Assembly (NCBI GenBank): GCA_031441465.1
Contig: JANOEP010000027.1
Location: 1-64,000 of the forward strand
Direction of reading: 5' to 3'
DNA length: 64,000 nucleotides
From: a bacterium
GTDB lineage: Bacteria; Krumholzibacteriota; Krumholzibacteriia; LZORAL124-64-63
Every line of letters begins with the position of its first letter. Position 1 is the first letter of the stretch. A program made the position numbers and the translations under genes. The notes below the pieces were generated by a model. It was not told where the DNA came from. It searched no databases and was given only the letters and a program-made list of their open reading frames with translations. Positions 4,056 through 18,449 of the stretch are shown in pieces.

Positions 4056-4730
4056 TCAGTCCGGCTTGAGTTCGTCGGTCTGGCCGATCCGCTTGGACTT
4101 GAAGCTCAGGCACATCAGCCCCACCGCGAGGCGCTCGTTGCGCACGATGACCTGCGGCGGGGTGCGGATGTCGGTCGGCGTGAAGTTCCAGATGCCGACC
4201 ACGCCGGCGGCGACCATCTGGTTGGCGACGTCCTGGGCGACGCTCACCGGCACGGTCAGCACGCCGACCTTGATGCCGTTCCCCTTCACGAACGCCTGCA
4301 TCTCGGACAGCGGCCGGATCGGCACGCCCCGGATCTCCAGACCGACGAGCTTCGGATCCACGTCGAAGATCCCGCGCAGCGGGAATCCCAGGCGCTCGAA
4401 GTTGCGGTAGTTGGCCAAGCCCTGGCCGAGATGGCCGGCGCCCACGATGATCATGGGCACCGGGACGTCGACCCCGATGATCTCTTCGAGGGCCGGCACC
4501 AGCTTGTCGACCTGGTAGGGACGACCGGGCTTGCTGAAGCCGCCGAAATAGTGGAAATCGTGCCGGAGCTGGCTGGCTTTGATGTCCAGGGATGTCGCGA
4601 GTTGTCGCGATGAGACTTCCTTGACGCCCGCTTGCTGCAGCAGGATGAGCTTGTCCAGGTACAGGGGCAGGCGCAGGATGGTGGCGTCCGGAACTCGGAA
4701 CTTCTTGCCCTTGGTGTTGACGATCCTCAC
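4056..4730 (-). CDS. rex: Redox-sensing transcriptional repressor Rex
   Basis: ATILRLPLY winged helix, SQLRHDF, Rossmann IVGAGHLG and GIWNF. GTG start with GGAGA RBS. Confidence 0.93.
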   Translation of the reverse strand: MRIVNTKGKKFRVPDATILRLPLYLDKLILLQQAGVKEVSSRQLATSLDIKASQLRHDFHYFGGFSKPGRPYQVDKLVPALEEIIGVDVPVPMIIVGAGHLGQGLANYRNFERLGFPLRGIFDVDPKLVGLEIRGVPIRPLSEMQAFVKGNGIKVGVLTVPVSVAQDVANQMVAAGVVGIWNFTPTDIRTPPQVIVRNERLAVGLMCLSFKSKRIGQTDELKPD

Positions 4731-4783
4731 CGGGGTCTCCCTTCGCCCGCCGCGCCGCGGCGCCGATCCGATCACAACCGTTC

Positions 4784-4801
4784 TTGTTAGGTCTTTGACA
4801 G
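4784..4801. promoter_or_regulatory. Rex operator-like palindrome over the predicted rex transcription start
   Basis: TTGTTAG-GTCT-TTGACAG compared with consensus TTGTGAA-N4-TTCACAA. Confidence 0.6.
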
Positions 4802-4805
4802 GACT

Positions 4806-4835
4806 AATCTACTCCCAGCCCCAGACACGCGTCAA
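4806..4835 (-). promoter_or_regulatory. Putative sigma70 promoter of rex
   Basis: TTGACG-N18-TAGATT on the minus strand. Confidence 0.55.
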
Positions 4836-4842
4836 GATGCAG

Positions 4843-4860
4843 GTTGACGAGATTTCACAA
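4843..4860. promoter_or_regulatory. Second Rex-like box with one perfect half-site
   Basis: GTTGACG-AGAT-TTCACAA. Confidence 0.45.
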
Positions 4861-4885
4861 CCAGGCTGTCAAAGGGAAAACAACG

Positions 4886-4914
4886 TTGGCCCCCCGGTAC
4901 GCGCCCCCTATATT
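4886..4914 (+). promoter_or_regulatory. Putative sigma70 promoter of gatE-gatD
   Basis: TTGGCC-N17-TATATT. Confidence 0.5.
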
Positions 4915-4959
4915 GGTCCCGCGCCGCACGTTCCACCACTCCAGCCGCACAGGACGCGC

Positions 4960-6864
4960 ATGAACGACGTCTCCCGCTACGATCCCCTGCAGGGCGCGCC
5001 GCTGCCCGTCCTGGGGGCCTGGGGCGAGCCGGAGTACCGGTCCCTCGGGCTGATGTCCGGACTCGAGGTGCACCAGCAACTGCTGACCTCGCGGAAACTC
5101 TTCTGCCGCTGCCCCGCCGGACGGTACGCGACCTCGCACCACGCGGAGATCCTGCGCCACATGCGCCCGACCCTCAGCGAGATGGGGGATTACGACGGCA
5201 CCGCGCTGATGGAGTTCAAGACCCGCAAGAACATCACCTACCTGTTGAACGACGAGACGGTCTGCACCTACGAGATGGACGACGCCCCGCCCTTCGAGAT
5301 GAACCCCGAGGCGCTGGACCACGCGGTGCGGGTGTCGCTGATGCTCGGCCTGCAGGTGGTCGACGAGATCCACATCGCCCGCAAGCAGTACCTCGATGGC
5401 AGCATCCCCACGGGTTTCCAGCGCACGGCGATCATCGGCGTCCAGGGTGCGGTCCCCCACCGCGGCCGGCGCATCGGGATCCGCCAGCTGTCCATCGAAG
5501 AGGATTCCTGCCGCGAGGTCAGCGACCGCGGGCACGCCCGCGTCTACCGCACCGACCGGCTCGGCATGCCCCTGATCGAGACGGTCACCGACCCGGACAT
5601 GCACACCCCCTGGGACGTGGCCGCCGTCTGCGATACGCTGCGCCGTCTGGCGCGGGCCAGCGGCCTGGTGCGCACGGGCGTCGGCGCGGCGCGGCAGGAC
5701 GTGAACGTGAGCATCCGCGGCGGCTCCCGCGTCGAGATCAAGGGCGTCCCGAGCATCAAGCGCATCCCGCGGCTGGTGCACAACGAGGCCCTGCGCCAGC
5801 GCAGCCTGCTGGCCATCCGCGACGTCCTGCGCGAGCGCGGCGTGACCGCGGCCTCGCTGAGGGACGCCTCGCGGGACGTCACGAACATCGTCCAGGCCGC
5901 CGAGGGCGGCTACCTGCGCGAGGCGGTCGCCCGGGGCGCCCGCGTCGCGGCCGTGCCGCTGCCCGGCTTCGAGGGGCTCGTCTCCACCCCGACCCAGCCC
6001 CACACCCGGTTCCTGAAGGAATTCTCCGACCGCGTGCGCGTGGTCGCCTGCCTCGACTCCCTGCCGAACGTCGTCTGCTCGACGAGCGAGGTCACGACGC
6101 TCTCGTCGGCCGAGTGGGGCCGCATCGAGCGCGCCTGCGGCGTCGGGCGCGACACGCCGATCATGGTGGTCTGGGGCGACGAGCGGGACGTCCGCACCGC
6201 GACGGGCGAGATCCTGCTGCGGGCGCGCGAGGCCTGCGAGGGCGTGCCCGAAGAGACGCGCCAGGCCCTGCCCGACGACACCACGGGCTTCGAGCGCGTC
6301 CTGCCCGGCCCCAGCCGCATGTACCCCGACACCGACCTGCCCCCGGTCGTGCTGGGCGCGGAGCGGCTGGCGCGCCTCGCGATCGACCTGCCGCCGCCGC
6401 CCTGGGAGCGCCTCGCGCGTCTGCAGCGCGACGGCGTGGGCGAGGACCTGGCCGGCCGGCTGGCCCTGCACCCGGCCTTCGCGCTCTACGCGCACCTGCA
6501 GCCGCGCCTCGGCGACGACACCCTGACGGCGACCGGCCTCGCCTCGCTGCTGCTGGACCGCGACCTGCCCCGGCCTTCGAGCGTGCCCGCGGCGGGCCCC
6601 TGGTGGGACCACGCGCTGGACGAGCTGCGCGCGGGCCGCGTGCTGCCCGAGGGGATCTGGTGGTCGGACGACGAACCGATCGCCGCGCTGCCGCCGGAAG
6701 CCGCCCGTGCGGCCTTCGCCGCGGCCTTGGCGGAGCTGCCCGCGGACCTGCCGGCGGCGCCCGGACCGCGGTTGCGCACGATGATGGGCCGGGTGATGCC
6801 CGCCCTGCGCGGTCGGGTGTCGGGACGCCAGGCCGCCGCCTGGGTCGAGGAGACGACATCATGA
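4960..6864 (+). CDS. gatE: Glu-tRNA(Gln) amidotransferase subunit E (archaeal type)
   Basis: GLEVHQQL..KLFCRCP, RPTLSEMG, RKQYLDGSIPTGFQRT, EEDSCR, DRLGMPLIE and RQDVNVSI..RVEIKGV. Also an AspRS-like insert, GVPEETR..LPGPSRMYPDTD and a YqeY-like tail (MMGRVMPALRGRVSG). Confidence 0.92.
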   Translation: MNDVSRYDPLQGAPLPVLGAWGEPEYRSLGLMSGLEVHQQLLTSRKLFCRCPAGRYATSHHAEILRHMRPTLSEMGDYDGTALMEFKTRKNITYLLNDETVCTYEMDDAPPFEMNPEALDHAVRVSLMLGLQVVDEIHIARKQYLDGSIPTGFQRTAIIGVQGAVPHRGRRIGIRQLSIEEDSCREVSDRGHARVYRTDRLGMPLIETVTDPDMHTPWDVAAVCDTLRRLARASGLVRTGVGAARQDVNVSIRGGSRVEIKGVPSIKRIPRLVHNEALRQRSLLAIRDVLRERGVTAASLRDASRDVTNIVQAAEGGYLREAVARGARVAAVPLPGFEGLVSTPTQPHTRFLKEFSDRVRVVACLDSLPNVVCSTSEVTTLSSAEWGRIERACGVGRDTPIMVVWGDERDVRTATGEILLRAREACEGVPEETRQALPDDTTGFERVLPGPSRMYPDTDLPPVVLGAERLARLAIDLPPPPWERLARLQRDGVGEDLAGRLALHPAFALYAHLQPRLGDDTLTATGLASLLLDRDLPRPSSVPAAGPWWDHALDELRAGRVLPEGIWWSDDEPIAALPPEAARAAFAAALAELPADLPAAPGPRLRTMMGRVMPALRGRVSGRQAAAWVEETTS

Positions 6865-8255
6865 GCGGGAACGGCAACGAGGACTACAAGGGTTACCGCG
6901 GCCCCGCCCTGGCCGTGCTCAAAAAATACGAGGCTCTGGTGTGGAGCGACGTCACGATCCGCACCGACCGGGGCGAATTCCGCGGGCTGATCCTGCCGCG
7001 CAACGAGATGGCCGACCCGGAGCACATCGTGCTGAAGATGTCGACCGGCTACAACATCGGCCTGCACGTCGGCGGCATGCAGGAGATCACGATCCACGGC
7101 CGCAAGGTCGCCAACTACAAGATCCCGGAGAAGGCCTTCCCCTACTCCGAAGGCAAGCCCCGCGTCAAGCTGCTGGGCACCGGCGGCACGATCGCCTCGC
7201 GGCTGGACTACCGCACCGGCGCCGTGATCCCCGCCTTTTCGCCCGGTGAGCTGTATGGCTCGGTGCCGGAGCTGGCGGACGTCTGCAACCTGGAGACCGA
7301 GAAGCTCTACGGCGTGTTCAGCGAGAACATGGGCCCCGAGCAGTGGATCGGCCTGGCCGAGGCCGTCGGGCGCGAGATCGCCGCCGGCGTCGACGGCATC
7401 GTCGTGGGCCACGGCACCGACACGATGCACCACACCGCGGCCATCCTCTCCTTCATGGTCCAGGGCTCGCCGGTGCCGATCGTCATGGTCGGCAGCCAGC
7501 GCTCGAGCGACCGGCCCAGCTCCGACGCCGCCATCAACCTCATGAACGCCACGCGCACGGCCGCGACCAGCGACCTCGCCGAGGTGATGGTCTGCATGTT
7601 CGGCCCCACCAGCGACCAGTACGGCCTGCTGCACCAGGGCACCCGCGTCCGCAAGATGCACTCGTCGTACCGCTCGACCTTCCGCACCCTGAGCGACATC
7701 CCGCTGGGCAAGGTCGACCAGGACGGCGTCACGCCGTTCCGTAACGACTACCGCCGCCGCCGCGCCGACCGCGACGTCACGGTCAAGGCCGTCTTCGACG
7801 ACCGGGTCTCGCTTGTCTACTACTACCCCGGCATGAAGCCCGACATCATCGACAGCCTGGTCGACCACGGCTACAAGGGGATCATCATCGCGGGCACGGG
7901 GCTGGGCCACGTCAATCGCCCCCTGTACCCCGCGCTGGAACGGGCCCACAAGGCGGGCGTCTCGATGTTCATGACCGTGCAGACTCTCTGGGGCTTCGTG
8001 CAGATGTACGTGTACGAGACCGGGCGCGAGATCATGGAGCTGGGCGTCGTGCCGGCGGCCAACATGCTGCCCGAGGTGGCCTACATGAAGCTGGGCTGGG
8101 CGCTGGGCCAGACGCAGGATCCCGCCGAGGTCGCCGCGATCATGCTGACGCCGATCGCGCGCGACATCACCGAACGGGAGCCGTACAACGGCTACCTCGT
8201 GTACCAGGGCGGCATCCCCGAGGTCGACCAGTTCCTGAGCGAACACTGGAAATAG
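6861..8255 (+). CDS. gatD: Glu-tRNA(Gln) amidotransferase subunit D (asparaginase-like, archaeal type)
   Basis: GatD N-terminal domain (GLILPR..IVLKMSTGYNIG), TGGTIASRLDYRTGAV, HGTDT, GSQRSSDRPSSD, GTRVRKMHS and MLPEVAYMKL. ATGA overlap with gatE. Confidence 0.93.
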   Translation: MSGNGNEDYKGYRGPALAVLKKYEALVWSDVTIRTDRGEFRGLILPRNEMADPEHIVLKMSTGYNIGLHVGGMQEITIHGRKVANYKIPEKAFPYSEGKPRVKLLGTGGTIASRLDYRTGAVIPAFSPGELYGSVPELADVCNLETEKLYGVFSENMGPEQWIGLAEAVGREIAAGVDGIVVGHGTDTMHHTAAILSFMVQGSPVPIVMVGSQRSSDRPSSDAAINLMNATRTAATSDLAEVMVCMFGPTSDQYGLLHQGTRVRKMHSSYRSTFRTLSDIPLGKVDQDGVTPFRNDYRRRRADRDVTVKAVFDDRVSLVYYYPGMKPDIIDSLVDHGYKGIIIAGTGLGHVNRPLYPALERAHKAGVSMFMTVQTLWGFVQMYVYETGREIMELGVVPAANMLPEVAYMKLGWALGQTQDPAEVAAIMLTPIARDITEREPYNGYLVYQGGIPEVDQFLSEHWK

Positions 8256-8267
8256 CGGCGGTCCGCG

Positions 8268-9668
8268 TCACTCGTGCGGCATCCGCTCGCCCGCGCTCGA
8301 GAAGAACTTCTGCACCGGGTAGCGCGACAGGTTGCTGACGCGGCTGGTGTAGATGCAGGCGACGTCGCGGATCTGGGCGCCGAAGCGGCTGACCGCCCGC
8401 CCCTCGCGGAAGATCGAACCCCACCAGGGGTTGTAGGCCGCGGCGATCCGCTTCTGCAACTGGGCCCGGCGGCCCAGGCTGGCCTGGATGCGGTCCTGCA
8501 GCTCCTGCACGACCACGGGGTCGTGGTCGGGCACCGTCAACAGGTGGTCGCGCTCCAGACCCAGGTCCTCCAGCGCGTCCTCGATCTCCTCGAGGTCGGC
8601 CACCGTCCCGCGCAGCGGCTCCGCGGCCAGGATCTCCTCCTCCACTTCGGGCACGATCATAGCGGTGCGCCAGCCGACCGACTTCTTGCTGCGCAGGATG
8701 TCGCCGTAGGTGTGGTCGCCGAAGTAGAGGATCGCGTCGCCCAGCGCGCCGAGCTTGGACTCCAGGTAGAACGCGTCGCCGCCGGTGAAGCAGAGTCCCC
8801 GGCGGTTCGGCAGGTGCGGCACCGTGTCGGGCGGGATTCGCTCGCCCTTGCCCTTGGGCAGGAAGAACCCCGGCTTGCGCGCGGTGCAGATGACCAGGTC
8901 GAAGAATTCGTCCCAGGCGGCGCCCGGCTCGCCGAGGATGTAGTTCATGACGGCGCCGGTGTAGTCGGGCTCGGAATTCGTGAGCAGGAACAGCTTCTTG
9001 CCCGCCTCGCGGAACCGGCGCAGCGTCGGCGCCAGCAGGGGATCACGCACGAAGTAGCGGGGCAGGTCGGCCATGATGCGGCGCTTCAGCGAGCCGTCGC
9101 GGTGGATGGTGTCGATGGCGTCGCGGATGTCGTCGAACAGCGTCTTGTAGCTTGGGCGCAGCAGCCCGGGCTGTCCGTCCTTCAGGGCCACCAGCGCCGA
9201 GTAGAGCGAGCCTTCTGGCAGGTCGAAGAGCGTGTCGACGACGCGGTAGCGGTTCGGGCTCAGCCGGATGCGGCCCCGCTTGTAGGCCTCGCGGCGCTCG
9301 GTCTTCGACAGCAGCCGCCCGCCGTGGCGGACCCGCGCCACGTAGCCGTAGGCGTCCACCTTGACCAGGTTGCCCAGACGGCGGTCGACGATCAGGCCGC
9401 GGGTGACGGCGGTGCGGTCGTAGGCCACGCCGCGCAGGCTCTCGGGATAGCCCTTGTTCTCCACCAGCAGTGCGACGGCCATCTCGAAGCAGAGCTGCTC
9501 GAAGACGTGGGGGTCGTAGAGGGCCAGCGTGTGGTCCATGTCGAAACCGATGGCCGCGATCGAGGCCAGGCGCAGGTTGCGGTGCGTGTGGACGCGCAGG
9601 TGGCGCTGCAGGGGATCGCCGGGAAGGTTGTCGGCCTCGGGGCGGAATGGTGCGTGGTGATCGGACAT
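8268..9668 (-). CDS. HAD-IG family 5'-nucleotidase (cN-II-like)
   Basis: GFDMDHTLALY, RGLIVD..GNLVKVD, FLLTNS, ARKPGFF, YFGDHTYGDI..GWRT and IYTSRVSN. Confidence 0.9.
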   Translation of the reverse strand: MSDHHAPFRPEADNLPGDPLQRHLRVHTHRNLRLASIAAIGFDMDHTLALYDPHVFEQLCFEMAVALLVENKGYPESLRGVAYDRTAVTRGLIVDRRLGNLVKVDAYGYVARVRHGGRLLSKTERREAYKRGRIRLSPNRYRVVDTLFDLPEGSLYSALVALKDGQPGLLRPSYKTLFDDIRDAIDTIHRDGSLKRRIMADLPRYFVRDPLLAPTLRRFREAGKKLFLLTNSEPDYTGAVMNYILGEPGAAWDEFFDLVICTARKPGFFLPKGKGERIPPDTVPHLPNRRGLCFTGGDAFYLESKLGALGDAILYFGDHTYGDILRSKKSVGWRTAMIVPEVEEEILAAEPLRGTVADLEEIEDALEDLGLERDHLLTVPDHDPVVVQELQDRIQASLGRRAQLQKRIAAAYNPWWGSIFREGRAVSRFGAQIRDVACIYTSRVSNLSRYPVQKFFSSAGERMPHE

Positions 9669-9684
9669 CGTCTCTCCGGAGCGC

Positions 9685-11088
9685 CTAGGTTGTCTGCAGA
9701 CGGCGCGGGAGCATCTCGTCCAGCCAGTCGCTCGCGTCGCGCAGGCCGACGAATTCGGGGAAGAGGGTCTCGATCTTGGCGCGCCAGCTCTTGGCGTTGT
9801 CGCGGAAACCCAGTTCCTCCAGGACCTGCCCGCCCCTGAGCCAGGCCGACAGGTTCCGCTCGTCGGTCGTGACCGCCCGCAGGTAGTAGCCCAGGGCGCG
9901 GCGTTCCTCGCCCCGCAGCCGGTCGCACTCGGCCTTGCCGAGCCAGGCGTGGGAGTAGAGAGGCGCCAGGTCCAGGGCCCGGTCGAAGCGGCGTTCCGCC
10001 GCGTCGGCGTTCCCGTCGAGCAGATCCAGGAGTCCAAGGTAACGCCACGGGTAGAGGTCGCGCCAGCGTTCATCCGTGTCCGGCGCCGCGCCGACCGAAG
10101 CCAGGCAGGCCTCGAGGTCGCGCGTCGCCAGCTTGCGCAGACTGGACGCCGCGACCAGGGTGAGATCCGCGTCGTCGCCCCGCGCCAGGTGACGGACGGC
10201 CGCCACGGCGCGGCGGAATCGCAACTCGGCCCGATCGGGGTAGATCTCCAACGCGTCGCGCACGATGTCGAGCGCGGCGGCGGTCTCCAGCCGCGCGATC
10301 ATCGCGGCGCTGAGCAGGCCTGCCAGATCCGGCCCGTAGGCCAGCGCCGCAGCGGCCGCCGGCGTCATCCCGCGCACCGTCTCCCAAGCCCGCTGCAACT
10401 GGCGCACCGTCTTGCCCAGCCCCGCGACGGGCAGCACCTCGTCCTCGAGGCGGGTCAGGGTCTCGGTCGCCAGGCAGTAGGCGAAGTAGGGTTCGTAGGG
10501 GTACTCGCGGGAAGCTTCGCGCAGCAGGCGGCGGTTGCGTTCGCCGCGGTTCGCGGCCCGGTCGGGACCGCCGTCGTGGATCAGCGCGAGCTGCGAGCCC
10601 CTGATCCCGAGCCCGCGGGCGGTCGCCCAGTTCTCCAGGGCGATCTCCACCGTCTCGTGGACCGGGTAGCAGTAGCGGACGTAGGGGTGGTTGCGGAACA
10701 GGCGCACCTGGGTCGCCGTCTCGTCGCCGCGCTCCTGGCCGCCGGCGAGGATCGCCACCCGGTAACCGGCGGCGTCCGGCTCCGACAGCAGGCGCTGCAT
10801 CTCGACCGGGCGCACCGGCTGCAGGCGCTCGTCGGCGTCCAGCACCAGGATCCAGTCGCAGCGGGCCTCGGCCAGCACGGCGTTGCGCGCCGCGGCGAAG
10901 TCGTCTTCCCACGGGACGTCGACCACGCGGGCCCCGTAGCCCTCGGCGATCAGGCGCGTGTTGTCGGACGAGCCCGTGTCGCCGATGACGATCTCGTCGA
11001 CCACCGCCAGGGCCGACTTGATGGTCTGGCCGATGGTCGATTCCTCGTCCTTGGCGATCATGCACAGCGTGACGGTTTTGCGTTTCAT
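9685..11088 (-). CDS. Family 2 glycosyltransferase with C-terminal TPR repeats
   Basis: TLCMIAKDEE, DTGSSDNT, DFAAARN, LVLDADE and RLFRN..VHE, followed by TPR-like helices. Confidence 0.88.
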   Translation of the reverse strand: MKRKTVTLCMIAKDEESTIGQTIKSALAVVDEIVIGDTGSSDNTRLIAEGYGARVVDVPWEDDFAAARNAVLAEARCDWILVLDADERLQPVRPVEMQRLLSEPDAAGYRVAILAGGQERGDETATQVRLFRNHPYVRYCYPVHETVEIALENWATARGLGIRGSQLALIHDGGPDRAANRGERNRRLLREASREYPYEPYFAYCLATETLTRLEDEVLPVAGLGKTVRQLQRAWETVRGMTPAAAAALAYGPDLAGLLSAAMIARLETAAALDIVRDALEIYPDRAELRFRRAVAAVRHLARGDDADLTLVAASSLRKLATRDLEACLASVGAAPDTDERWRDLYPWRYLGLLDLLDGNADAAERRFDRALDLAPLYSHAWLGKAECDRLRGEERRALGYYLRAVTTDERNLSAWLRGGQVLEELGFRDNAKSWRAKIETLFPEFVGLRDASDWLDEMLPRRLQTT

Positions 11089-17361: not shown

Positions 17362-18408
17362 TCAGTGCGGGACGGGTCCCGCCTCGTCGGTCGCGGATGG
17401 GGCGGCCGCGGCGGGAGTCTTCTCCCCCACGGCCAGGAACACGTCGGGCCAGACCGCGCCGCGGTCCTGCAGGCCGGGCGGCAGGGAGACCCGAGCCAGG
17501 TCGATCTGCGCCGGACGGCGCACGAGGTAACGGCGCGGGGCGAGTGCGTGGCGCGCGAAGAACGCCAGCATCTCCTCGCGGGAGAAACCGAGCCACTGGT
17601 GGGCCAGTTCCTCGCGCATCCACTGCAGATTGTGGCTCGTGAAGGCCACCACGACCACCTTGCCGCCGGGGCGCACCACGCGGGCCATCTCGCTCACGGC
17701 CTGCCCGGGGCTGGCAACGTGGTGCAGCACCATCGAGCAGTAGGCGGCGTCGAAGGCGCCGTCGGCGAACGGCAGAGCCTGGACGTCCGCGCTCCGGAAC
17801 CGGACGCCGGCGATCTGCTCGCGCTCGCAAAGCTGGCGTGCGCGCTCGAGCATCGCCTCGCTGGTGTCCACGGCGGTGACGGTCGCGCCCGTTCCCGCGA
17901 GCAGGGGCAGCAGGGCGCCCGTGCCGGTGCCGATGTCCAGGACCGCGAGCCCGGGCGGAACCAGGGCCGCCACGGCGCCGGCCTGGATGTCGGGGGCCTC
18001 GAAGGCGGGGCGGATCTGGTCCCAGGCGCCGGCGATCCCCGCGAAGAACTCACCCGTGCGGCGGTCGCGGTCGGCCAGCACGCGGCGCAGCGCCTCGTCG
18101 TCGCCGGCGGCCTCGGGCACTCGGCCCGCCGAGGCGAGGACGGCATCCAGCAGGCCCGCATCGGCGCCCAGGGCGGACCGGTCGGCCAATCCGTACCAGC
18201 CCCAGGTCCCGTCCTTGCGATGGCTCAGCCAGCCCGCGTCACGCAGGACGGCCAGGTGCTTCGAGACGCCGGGTTGGCTCAAGCCGAGGATCTGCACCAT
18301 GTCCTGGACGGTCAATTCTCCCCGCCCGAGCAACCGCAGCAGCCGCAGCCGCGTCGGATCGCCGACGGCCTGGTACATGGCTGCAGGGTGCTGGAATTGG
18401 GTGACCAC
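17362..18408 (-). CDS. sahR: ArsR-HTH plus SAM-methyltransferase fusion regulator (SahR-like)
   Basis: DPTRLRLL..SQPGVSKHL ArsR domain fused to LDIGTGTG..LPF..FD..MVLHH..VVRPGG, directly upstream of ahcY. Confidence 0.82.
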   Translation of the reverse strand: MVTQFQHPAAMYQAVGDPTRLRLLRLLGRGELTVQDMVQILGLSQPGVSKHLAVLRDAGWLSHRKDGTWGWYGLADRSALGADAGLLDAVLASAGRVPEAAGDDEALRRVLADRDRRTGEFFAGIAGAWDQIRPAFEAPDIQAGAVAALVPPGLAVLDIGTGTGALLPLLAGTGATVTAVDTSEAMLERARQLCEREQIAGVRFRSADVQALPFADGAFDAAYCSMVLHHVASPGQAVSEMARVVRPGGKVVVVAFTSHNLQWMREELAHQWLGFSREEMLAFFARHALAPRRYLVRRPAQIDLARVSLPPGLQDRGAVWPDVFLAVGEKTPAAAAPSATDEAGPVPH

Positions 18409-18429
18409 AGTCTCCGCCTGCCGAACAAT

Positions 18430-18449
18430 GAATCGCTAAATAACGATAC
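18430..18449. promoter_or_regulatory. SahR operator-like 20-bp palindrome
   Basis: Minus strand GTATC-N10-GATTC, similar to the ATATC-N10-GATAT SahR-type site, in an AT-rich patch 21 nt before the start. Confidence 0.55.

Follow-up and report, generated by a model that had tools for sequence, protein, structure and literature searches.

A bacterial-clade GatDE amidotransferase operon in a Krumholzibacteriota genome that also encodes GlnRS

The closest described relatives of the gene pair analyzed here are archaeal GatDE and bacterial GatCAB. Archaeal GatDE, with solved structures from Pyrococcus abyssi (1ZQ1) and, with tRNA(Gln), from Methanothermobacter thermautotrophicus (2D6F), consists of two subunits. 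In excerpts of three reviews (PMC8762117, PMC9499178, PMC8007984), it was called archaea-only or an archaeal signature. GatCAB shares the transamidation chemistry, the cradle domain and the YqeY-like tail, and its GatB subunit is a paralogue of GatE. However, GatCAB lacks the AspRS-like insertion and obtains ammonia through the amidase GatA and not through the asparaginase-fold protein GatD. We analyzed a 64,000-nucleotide stretch of DNA (contig JANOEP010000027.1 of assembly GCA_031441465.1, positions 1 to 64,000; hereafter the window) from a bacterium of the phylum Krumholzibacteriota, and found that it carries a true gatE and a true gatD, which encode neither GatB nor a plain asparaginase. 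The assembly comprises 3.49 Mb in 74 contigs, the window lying on contig C27, with a completeness of 96.8% and a contamination of 1.05%. We favor, at somewhat better than even confidence, the interpretation that gatE and gatD form an intact, resident operon belonging to a bacterial GatDE clade, whose product would work as a Glu-tRNA(Gln) amidotransferase beside GlnRS.

The two genes lie on the forward strand. gatE (4960..6864) starts with ATG and encodes 634 residues, the predicted tRNA-binding kinase/transamidase subunit, and gatD (6861..8255) encodes a 464-residue asparaginase-fold amidase subunit with a GatD-specific N-terminal domain. They overlap by ATGA at 6861-6864, reading ...acatcATGAgcggg, with GAGGAG located 7-12 nucleotides upstream. 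GatE exceeded the cut-offs of both GatE equivalog models of NCBIfam, with 464.9 bits against NF003107 (cut-off 456) and 410.6 bits against TIGR00134 (cut-off 319.55). The narrow margin for NF003107 reflects the unaligned tail; the equivalog models align only up to model position ~504 of 630. In contrast, GatB models gave at most 122 bits against cut-offs of 315-680, the best of them reaching 122 against 338. Close GatE homologues are likewise 634 residues long and aligned over 100% of the length of the window GatE. GatD equivalogs named for the family test were NF003217 and TIGR02153; the protein scored 500.2 bits against NF003217 (cut-off 310) and matched Pfam GatD_N (1.5e-12), Asparaginase (6e-56) and Asparaginase_C (3e-32). 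The model of stand-alone type I asparaginase, NF006998, gave 124 bits, below its cut-off of 376. With tblastn, gatD was the sole asparaginase-fold gene found in the genome. A preliminary description, made from the letters of the window, had named an intact gatE, its ATGA coupling to gatD and the specific N-terminal domain of GatD, and all three were borne out.

In domain architecture, the pair followed archaeal GatDE. Sequence comparison with solved structures gave archaeal chains as the best matches, namely 1zq1_C (320 bits) and 2d6f_C (305 bits) for GatE, and 1zq1_A (399 bits) and 2d6f_A (383 bits) for GatD, although identity between the window GatE and the solved GatE chains reaches just ~35%. 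For GatE, AlphaFold2 modeling with 73 homologues gave a pLDDT of 84.2 and a pTM of 0.82. In a Foldseek search with this model, 1zq1_C (E 2.4e-44, TMt 0.78) and 2d6f led, and GatB chains came next. AspRS chains appeared as weak matches (1eqr_A, 5.4e-3), as expected because GatE bears the AspRS-like insertion. According to the alignment with the structure chains, the N-terminal part of the cradle (catalytic) domain spans approximately residues 25-290 (5032..5830, forward strand). The AspRS-like insertion domain, an alpha/beta segment in the model, occupies approximately residues 295-425 (5842..6234, forward strand). The helical domain and the shortened, diverged YqeY-like tail make up residues ~470-634 (6367..6861, forward strand), which are all-helical with a pLDDT of 83-95. 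The alignment to 1zq1_C and 2d6f_C was unbroken over residues 25-490/535, insertion included, whereas GatB alignments ended near residue 285 and did not cover it. Pfam GatB_N was stretched over residues 33-468 although its profile has 277 positions. The insert read from the sequence in the preliminary description was thus supported. GatE resembles archaeal GatE in its cradle and insertion domains and, less clearly, in its helical and tail domains, and GatD resembles archaeal GatD in its N-terminal domain, asparaginase fold and catalytic motifs.

The catalytic residues were also preserved. His38, Glu180 and Glu207 of GatE aligned with His15, Glu157 and Glu184 of M. thermautotrophicus GatE, which we take to be the metal/ATP site, and were invariant among 73 sequences. 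The cradle also contains a conserved C49-x-C51 and C102. GatD kept the motifs GTGGTIASR (TGGT), HGTDTM (HGTDT) and RKMH. Family membership, catalytic motifs and domain architecture were observed directly, as were the distribution and the gene inventories described below. Judged from these sequence features, the pair most likely performs the same chemistry as archaeal GatDE.

The GatE tail differed from its archaeal counterpart. Residues ~470-634 searched alone against Pfam matched no family even at E<=10, and, relative to other families of the phylum, the tail is ~30 residues shorter in the window family. The terminal MGxVMxxLRGRxxG motif was retained, and the window tail could be aligned with the GatE tails of those families. 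A profile of 13 phylum tails, the window's included, matched 1zq1_C 454-631 at 5.5e-22 and 2d6f_C at 2.8e-18; the same profile matched GatB tails at 7e-6 and YqeY at 0.059. Individually, 10 of the 13 tails matched GatB_Yqey, and the window tail was not among them. Since the profile reaches archaeal GatE tails, the window tail appears to be present, though shortened and diverged. The YqeY-like tail suggested earlier was thus supported only in part, by the profile and not by a Pfam match of the window tail itself.

Bacterial GatDE proved to be widespread. Of 201 genomes sampled from the phylum, 139 had a GatE above the cut-off, and the nearest named homologues were proteins annotated as 'Glu-tRNA(Gln) amidotransferase subunit GatE' in metagenome-assembled genomes (MAGs) of Candidatus Krumholzibacteriia. 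A wider scan for two bacterial-type motifs, in which each prokaryotic species was represented by one genome, returned at least 600 stretches, and at least 593 of these, across many phyla, encode bacterial-type GatE relatives. Counts of gene order, flanks and tRNA genes refer to the best 80 of these loci. Automatic labels, some of them doubtful, assigned the 80 to Krumholzibacteriota, Bacteroidota, Ignavibacteria, Kapabacteria, Chlorobiota, Aminicenantes/Acidobacteriota, Myxococcota, Calditrichota, Cloacimonadota, Fermentibacteria, Marinimicrobia, Planctomycetota and others. gatD lay directly 3' of gatE on the same strand in 68/80 loci. In the other 12, gatD was absent downstream, and 11 of them were truncated by a contig end; at the remaining locus (L060), 3 kb downstream of gatE contained no gatD. 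At another locus (L101), gatD was found ~1.9 kb downstream of gatE, with an insertion between the genes. Across phyla, GatD proteins shared 62-85% identity with the window GatD. One 943-residue cluster representative (P0124) contained a bacterial-type GatD, 61% identical, as its residues 488-937; the ~487 residues that precede it may reflect a fusion or a miscalled gene.

Pairs annotated by NCBI or JGI in MAGs of Krumholzibacteriia, Bacteroidota, Ignavibacteria, Aminicenantes, Myxococcota and others have the CTYEMDD and YDGTALME motifs in common with the window and the same gatE-gatD order, without any essential difference. The suspicion that similar pairs might already be annotated elsewhere was therefore correct for many MAGs. 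The pair is a member of a large, already annotated bacterial group and no one-off import, and as a sighting the locus is ordinary within that group. Among the papers listed in literature searches for GatDE, whose coverage left most subscription papers outside, none dealt with bacterial GatDE as judged by title or abstract start.

The phylogeny of GatD placed the bacterial proteins together. We collected 515 GatD homologues at E<=1e-30 from 1.84 billion cluster representatives. The resulting trees are quick searches with GatD alone, and the outgroup branches are long (2.3-2.4). In a FastTree analysis of 148 rows, all 29 GatD rows from bacterial loci formed one group (support 94). This group lay within a clade (support 100) with three unlabelled representatives, and its neighbor was a 4-row group that included a Sigynarchaeota GatD. 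In a quick IQ-TREE search of 63 rows, one branch (support 99) parted 22 bacterial rows and three unlabelled representatives from the other 38. A quick IQ-TREE tree of 46 rows was rooted with two stand-alone type I asparaginase-like proteins of GatDE-bearing genomes. Here, 13 bacterial rows and 2 unlabelled representatives formed one clade (support 100) nested within other GatDs and sister (support 98) to the 4-row Sigynarchaeota-containing group. A branch with support of 99 separated the two stand-alone asparaginases from all GatDs, and the window protein did not group with ordinary AnsA in this tree. The window GatD fell inside the bacterial clade, adjoining Krumholzibacteriota rows. Only six rows outside that clade were labelled, and all six were archaeal (Sigynarchaeota, Bathyarchaeia, Thermococcus, Methanosarcina, Desulfurococcaceae and Thermoplasmatota); the remainder were unlabelled.

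Branches within the bacterial clade were short, <=0.2 for most rows versus about 0.8 elsewhere, and their order did not match the phyla. A single shallow nested clade is consistent with a single entry into bacteria and later exchange among phyla; unusually slow change would fit as well. The nesting likewise fits an old archaeal relation with a direction from archaea to bacteria, in agreement with the old inter-domain transfer proposed in the preliminary description.

We then compared the locus with the rest of the genome. GlnRS was present with 709 bits (cut-off 426), and AsnRS with 637 bits. The archaeal enzyme differs in this respect, as archaea are without GlnRS according to an excerpt of PMC9499178. 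The single GatB match in the genome was gatE itself (106 bits), the best GatA match scored 172 bits, below the cut-off of 481, and AsnA was not found there. Two AsnB genes exceeded the cut-off, and there was one AspRS, of bacterial type, and one GluRS. Both tRNA(Gln) genes of the genome have U1-A72; the UUG isoacceptor (contig C6) further has G2-C71, G3-C70 and G73, and the CUG isoacceptor has A73 and C3-G70. The roles of GatCAB are thus covered by GlnRS, AsnRS and two AsnB, and tRNA(Gln) identity is bacterial. The A73 and C3-G70 of the CUG isoacceptor are presumably unlike the identity set of Escherichia coli GlnRS. We considered this tRNA as a client of GatDE and rejected it: close copies occurred in 174/201 genomes, including two with neither GatE nor GatB (G092 and G165), and in five relatives (G109, G026, G066, G084 and G076) it lies within ~400 bases of glnS. 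tRNA-dependent asparagine synthesis by GatDE was also judged unlikely, with two AsnB, AsnRS and one bacterial AspRS present. A tRNA-Sec (C24:74723-74821) is also encoded in the genome, as is a tmRNA (C4:8952-9309) whose tag reads DTEHFALAA.

These inventories bear on the possibility that GatDE replaced GatCAB and/or GlnRS and reshaped the identity of tRNA(Gln), as the preliminary description had supposed. GatDE is intact, and neither GatB nor GatA was found in a 96.8%-complete genome, as a replacement would predict. However, the presence of GlnRS means that GatDE has not replaced it. Neither tRNA(Gln) has the altered first pair, the UUG isoacceptor also carries the G2-C71, G3-C70 and G73 given above, and the CUG type is shared with the two genomes lacking both GatE and GatB and sits near glnS in the five relatives. 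In addition, GlnRS was found in 43/43 high-quality genomes without GatB (see below). Such a takeover is already contradicted by the gene inventories, and we consider it highly improbable. GatCAB was not found, but its tasks fall to GlnRS, AsnRS and the two AsnB.

The co-occurrence of the three genes across the phylum gave further information. In the sample of 201 genomes, GatB exceeded the cut-off in 120, GlnRS in 135 and AsnRS in 177. We confined the joint counts to 125 high-quality genomes (completeness >=90%, contamination <=5%); these counts serve as a description of the sample, in which relatives are non-independent, and not as a test. GatE, GatB and GlnRS occurred together in 52 genomes, GatE and GatB without GlnRS in 13, and GatE and GlnRS without GatB in 40; GatE as the only one of the three was seen in 0/125. 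Genomes without GatE had GatB and GlnRS (5), GatB alone (11) or GlnRS alone (2), and a GatE fragment was found once beside both and once beside GlnRS without GatB. Overall, GatE was present in 105/125 genomes plus the 2 fragments, and GatB was found in 24/24 genomes without GlnRS. GatDE is thus never the sole candidate route in the high-quality set of the phylum, and the reliance on GatDE alone implied by the preliminary description was not supported.

Outside the phylum, 20 GatE-bearing genomes contained GlnRS in 17 cases and GatB in 8. In the phylum of one of them, 12/71 genomes had GatE; 10 of these 12 had GlnRS without GatB, one had GatB without GlnRS, and one had neither (G214). Neither GlnRS nor GatB was found in G214 (locus L035) or in G212 (locus L064), both GatE-bearing and from other phyla. 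Should the two genomes prove complete, bacterial GatDE would for the first time be seen as the sole route.

The same counts concern the idea that the pair is a redundant relic, that is, a once-useful archaeal-type route that is now neutral and heading for loss. The canonical needs are met by other genes, and G092 (95% complete) and G165 (90%) manage with neither GatE nor GatB. On the other hand, gatE and gatD have no frameshift or stop, the catalytic residues are invariant among the 73 sequences, GatD identity remains at 62-85% across phyla, and GatE is retained in the great majority of high-quality genomes (105/125 and 2 fragments). We therefore regard a relic as improbable.

A Glu-tRNA(Gln) amidotransferase needs a source of its substrate, so the GluRS proteins were examined. 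The residue at the position of Thermus thermophilus Arg358 is informative, as the change of Arg358 to Gln yields a non-discriminating enzyme according to an excerpt of PMC2978374. The GluRS of the window genome has Arg at this position (MLGGRF), as is typical for discriminating enzymes. Typing of 28 sequences from 20 genomes gave two types. Type 1, with Arg, was the sole GluRS found in the window genome, G017, G052, G092 and G165, and was one of the two copies in genomes with two GluRS. G092 and G165, with type 1 only, are without any amidotransferase. Type 2 has Ser, Asn, Lys, Asp or, in two cases, Arg at this position. It was the sole GluRS in five examined GatB-only genomes without GlnRS, which implied that type 2 must charge tRNA(Gln) there, and, of five examined genomes with GatE and GatB but no GlnRS, it was the second copy in the 4 whose second copy could be typed. 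Type 2 was not found in the window genome. The pair has no counterpart here of the archaeal-type non-discriminating GluRS partner.

The copy number of GluRS was mostly one in the window's family and one other, and two in most other families; a single GluRS was present in 31/40 high-quality genomes that combine GatE with GlnRS and lack GatB. Most families of the phylum carry both types, while the window's family has mostly the Arg type alone (loci L134-L161). The full-length GluRS of the genome scored 364 bits with the Thermotoga maritima transamidosome GluRS versus 334 with the T. thermophilus enzyme, and its anticodon-binding half best matched T. thermophilus; neither ranking was used as evidence. 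In the same genome (C11:57208-61047; L010, L104), gltX is followed ~2.2 kb on by tRNA-Gln(CUG) and 40 nucleotides further by tRNA-Glu(CUC).

Several of these observations weigh against a working Glu-tRNA(Gln) amidotransferase. In this bacterial host, both tRNA(Gln) have U1-A72 and not the A1-U72 that archaeal GatDE was reported to read in an excerpt of PMC9499178. Archaeal GatE binds the D-loop of the tRNA with its tail, whereas the tail of the window GatE is shortened, diverged and unrecognized by Pfam. The genome appears to have no evident dedicated source of Glu-tRNA(Gln), as judged from one residue in a small sample. A sufficient GatDE route would predict genomes with GatE alone, which were absent from the 125. 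Finally, GatDE is kept in 40/43 high-quality genomes with GlnRS but no GatB, and as a fragment in one more, which is odd for a merely redundant enzyme.

The same observations, namely the discriminating-type GluRS without a second copy, the canonical needs covered by GlnRS, AsnRS and AsnB, the intact GatE of those 40 genomes and the one fragment, the altered tail of the window's family and the 0/125 count, would also suit a retargeted enzyme. Such an enzyme would have kept the GatDE chemistry, the ATP-dependent amidation of a carboxyl group with ammonia supplied by GatD, but in GlnRS-bearing bacteria it would act on another acyl-tRNA or a non-tRNA carboxylate in place of Glu-tRNA(Gln) destined for translation. 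However, every tRNA-handling domain is retained and confidently predicted. The 80 loci revealed no conserved extra partner, with Rex in 10/80 and in close relatives only, and no tRNA gene within 3 kb. With two AsnB at hand, asparagine need not be made on tRNA, and in G212 and G214, which have neither GlnRS nor GatB, GatDE would be the glutamine route if the genomes are complete. We consider retargeting possible but unlikely.

We prefer the interpretation of a Glu-tRNA(Gln) amidotransferase operating beside GlnRS, and from sequence we infer its activity, substrate and physiological role as follows. The gatE-gatD pair would have been inherited within a Krumholzibacteriota-like lineage. GatD would free ammonia from glutamine or asparagine, as inferred from the solved archaeal enzyme, and the insertion and tail domains of GatE would bind glutamyl-tRNA. 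In the cradle domain, ATP would activate the side-chain carboxyl group, and amidation would then give Gln-tRNA(Gln). GatCAB was probably lost from the lineage, the standard needs being met by AsnRS, AsnB and GlnRS. GatDE may then provide Gln-tRNA(Gln) by a second route, of minor or conditional use, or may repair Glu-tRNA(Gln).

In bacteria, the retention of an amidotransferase together with both GlnRS and AsnRS has a precedent in GatCAB. GatCAB retained in this way serves tRNA-dependent asparagine synthesis, a need that the two AsnB genes make unlikely here. Deinococcus, Thermus and Bdellovibrio keep GatCAB despite having both direct synthetases, according to an excerpt of PMC4206432, whereas the enzyme kept in the window genome is GatDE.

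The surroundings of the operon were those of a resident bacterial locus. A sigma-70-like promoter match, TTGGCC-17-TATATT (4886..4914, forward strand), lies 46 nucleotides 5' of gatE with 9/12 matching positions; it agrees with the preliminary description and is a consensus match only. Two promoter-like sites occurred in 4700-8500 versus 0.1 expected from shuffles, and no terminator-like site was found. The neighbors are bacterial, comprising an HAD hydrolase, a SPOR protein, FabH, Rex, a 5'-nucleotidase, GT2, SpoU, UbiA and adenosine deaminase, and the 15 open reading frames scanned (window 48-21475) gave no match to transposase or integrase families. GC at third codon positions was 0.92 in gatE, within the 0.82-0.98 of the other frames, and overall GC was 0.68-0.72 at the locus versus 0.66-0.75 across the window. 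Host-like codons, bacterial neighbors and the absence of mobility marks, all noted in the preliminary description, were hence upheld.

Divergent from gatE lies a gene for a Rex-type redox-sensing repressor (Put_DNA-bind_N and CoA_binding; 4056-4775, reverse strand), and the shared spacer of 185 nucleotides has promoter-like sites on either strand. The order Rex-gatE-gatD was repeated in 10 related loci, with FabH upstream in 6. This recurrence supports vertical inheritance within the family and argues against a chimeric contig, of which there was no sign. No conserved partner gene emerged from the 80 loci; the commonest flank was Rex (10/80, all close relatives), in a count that disregards open reading frames overlapping gatE or gatD. 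No tRNA(Gln) or tRNA(Glu) gene was found within 3 kb of the pair at these loci, the single ARAGORN call falling inside gatE.

Convergent with gatD is a 5'-nucleotidase gene (8268-10073, reverse strand; Pfam PF05761, 421 bits) of a cytosolic family that we take to be mostly eukaryotic; it was next to the gatE-gatD pair in 0/92 other loci. Further along, a single open reading frame (17362-18435, reverse strand) combines an ArsR-type helix-turn-helix with a class I S-adenosylmethionine methyltransferase domain. Among metatranscriptomes, 3 runs from 2 studies contained 13-16% of the sampled words. Their contigs covered mostly gatD (6871-8293) and a short part of gatE (6061-6326) and were 95-97% identical to the window, which implied an origin in relatives. 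These RNA-library contigs give nothing firm as evidence of transcription, as DNA carry-over may account for them.

Taken together, the window adds a further well-documented case of bacterial GatDE to set against reviews that describe the enzyme as archaea-only. It also has a bearing on evolutionary scenarios in which GatDE was already present in the last common ancestor or serves as a domain marker. The textbook reasons for having GatDE are all covered in this genome by GlnRS, AsnRS, AsnB and a sole GluRS of the discriminating type, which sharpens a testable question, namely the function of GatDE in GlnRS-bearing bacteria. We tentatively suggest, as an idea that may well prove wrong, that GlnRS-bearing bacteria of this and other FCB-type phyla keep GatDE for something that GlnRS cannot do, and not for the Gln-tRNA(Gln) of bulk translation. 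It might make or repair Gln-tRNA(Gln) under particular conditions, such as a shortage of free glutamine with asparagine as the donor, or amidate a different acyl-tRNA or carboxylate. GatDE would then outlive the loss of both GatCAB and the non-discriminating type of GluRS. If this is true, the 'archaeal' GatDE would be widespread among bacteria in a role that has yet to be described.

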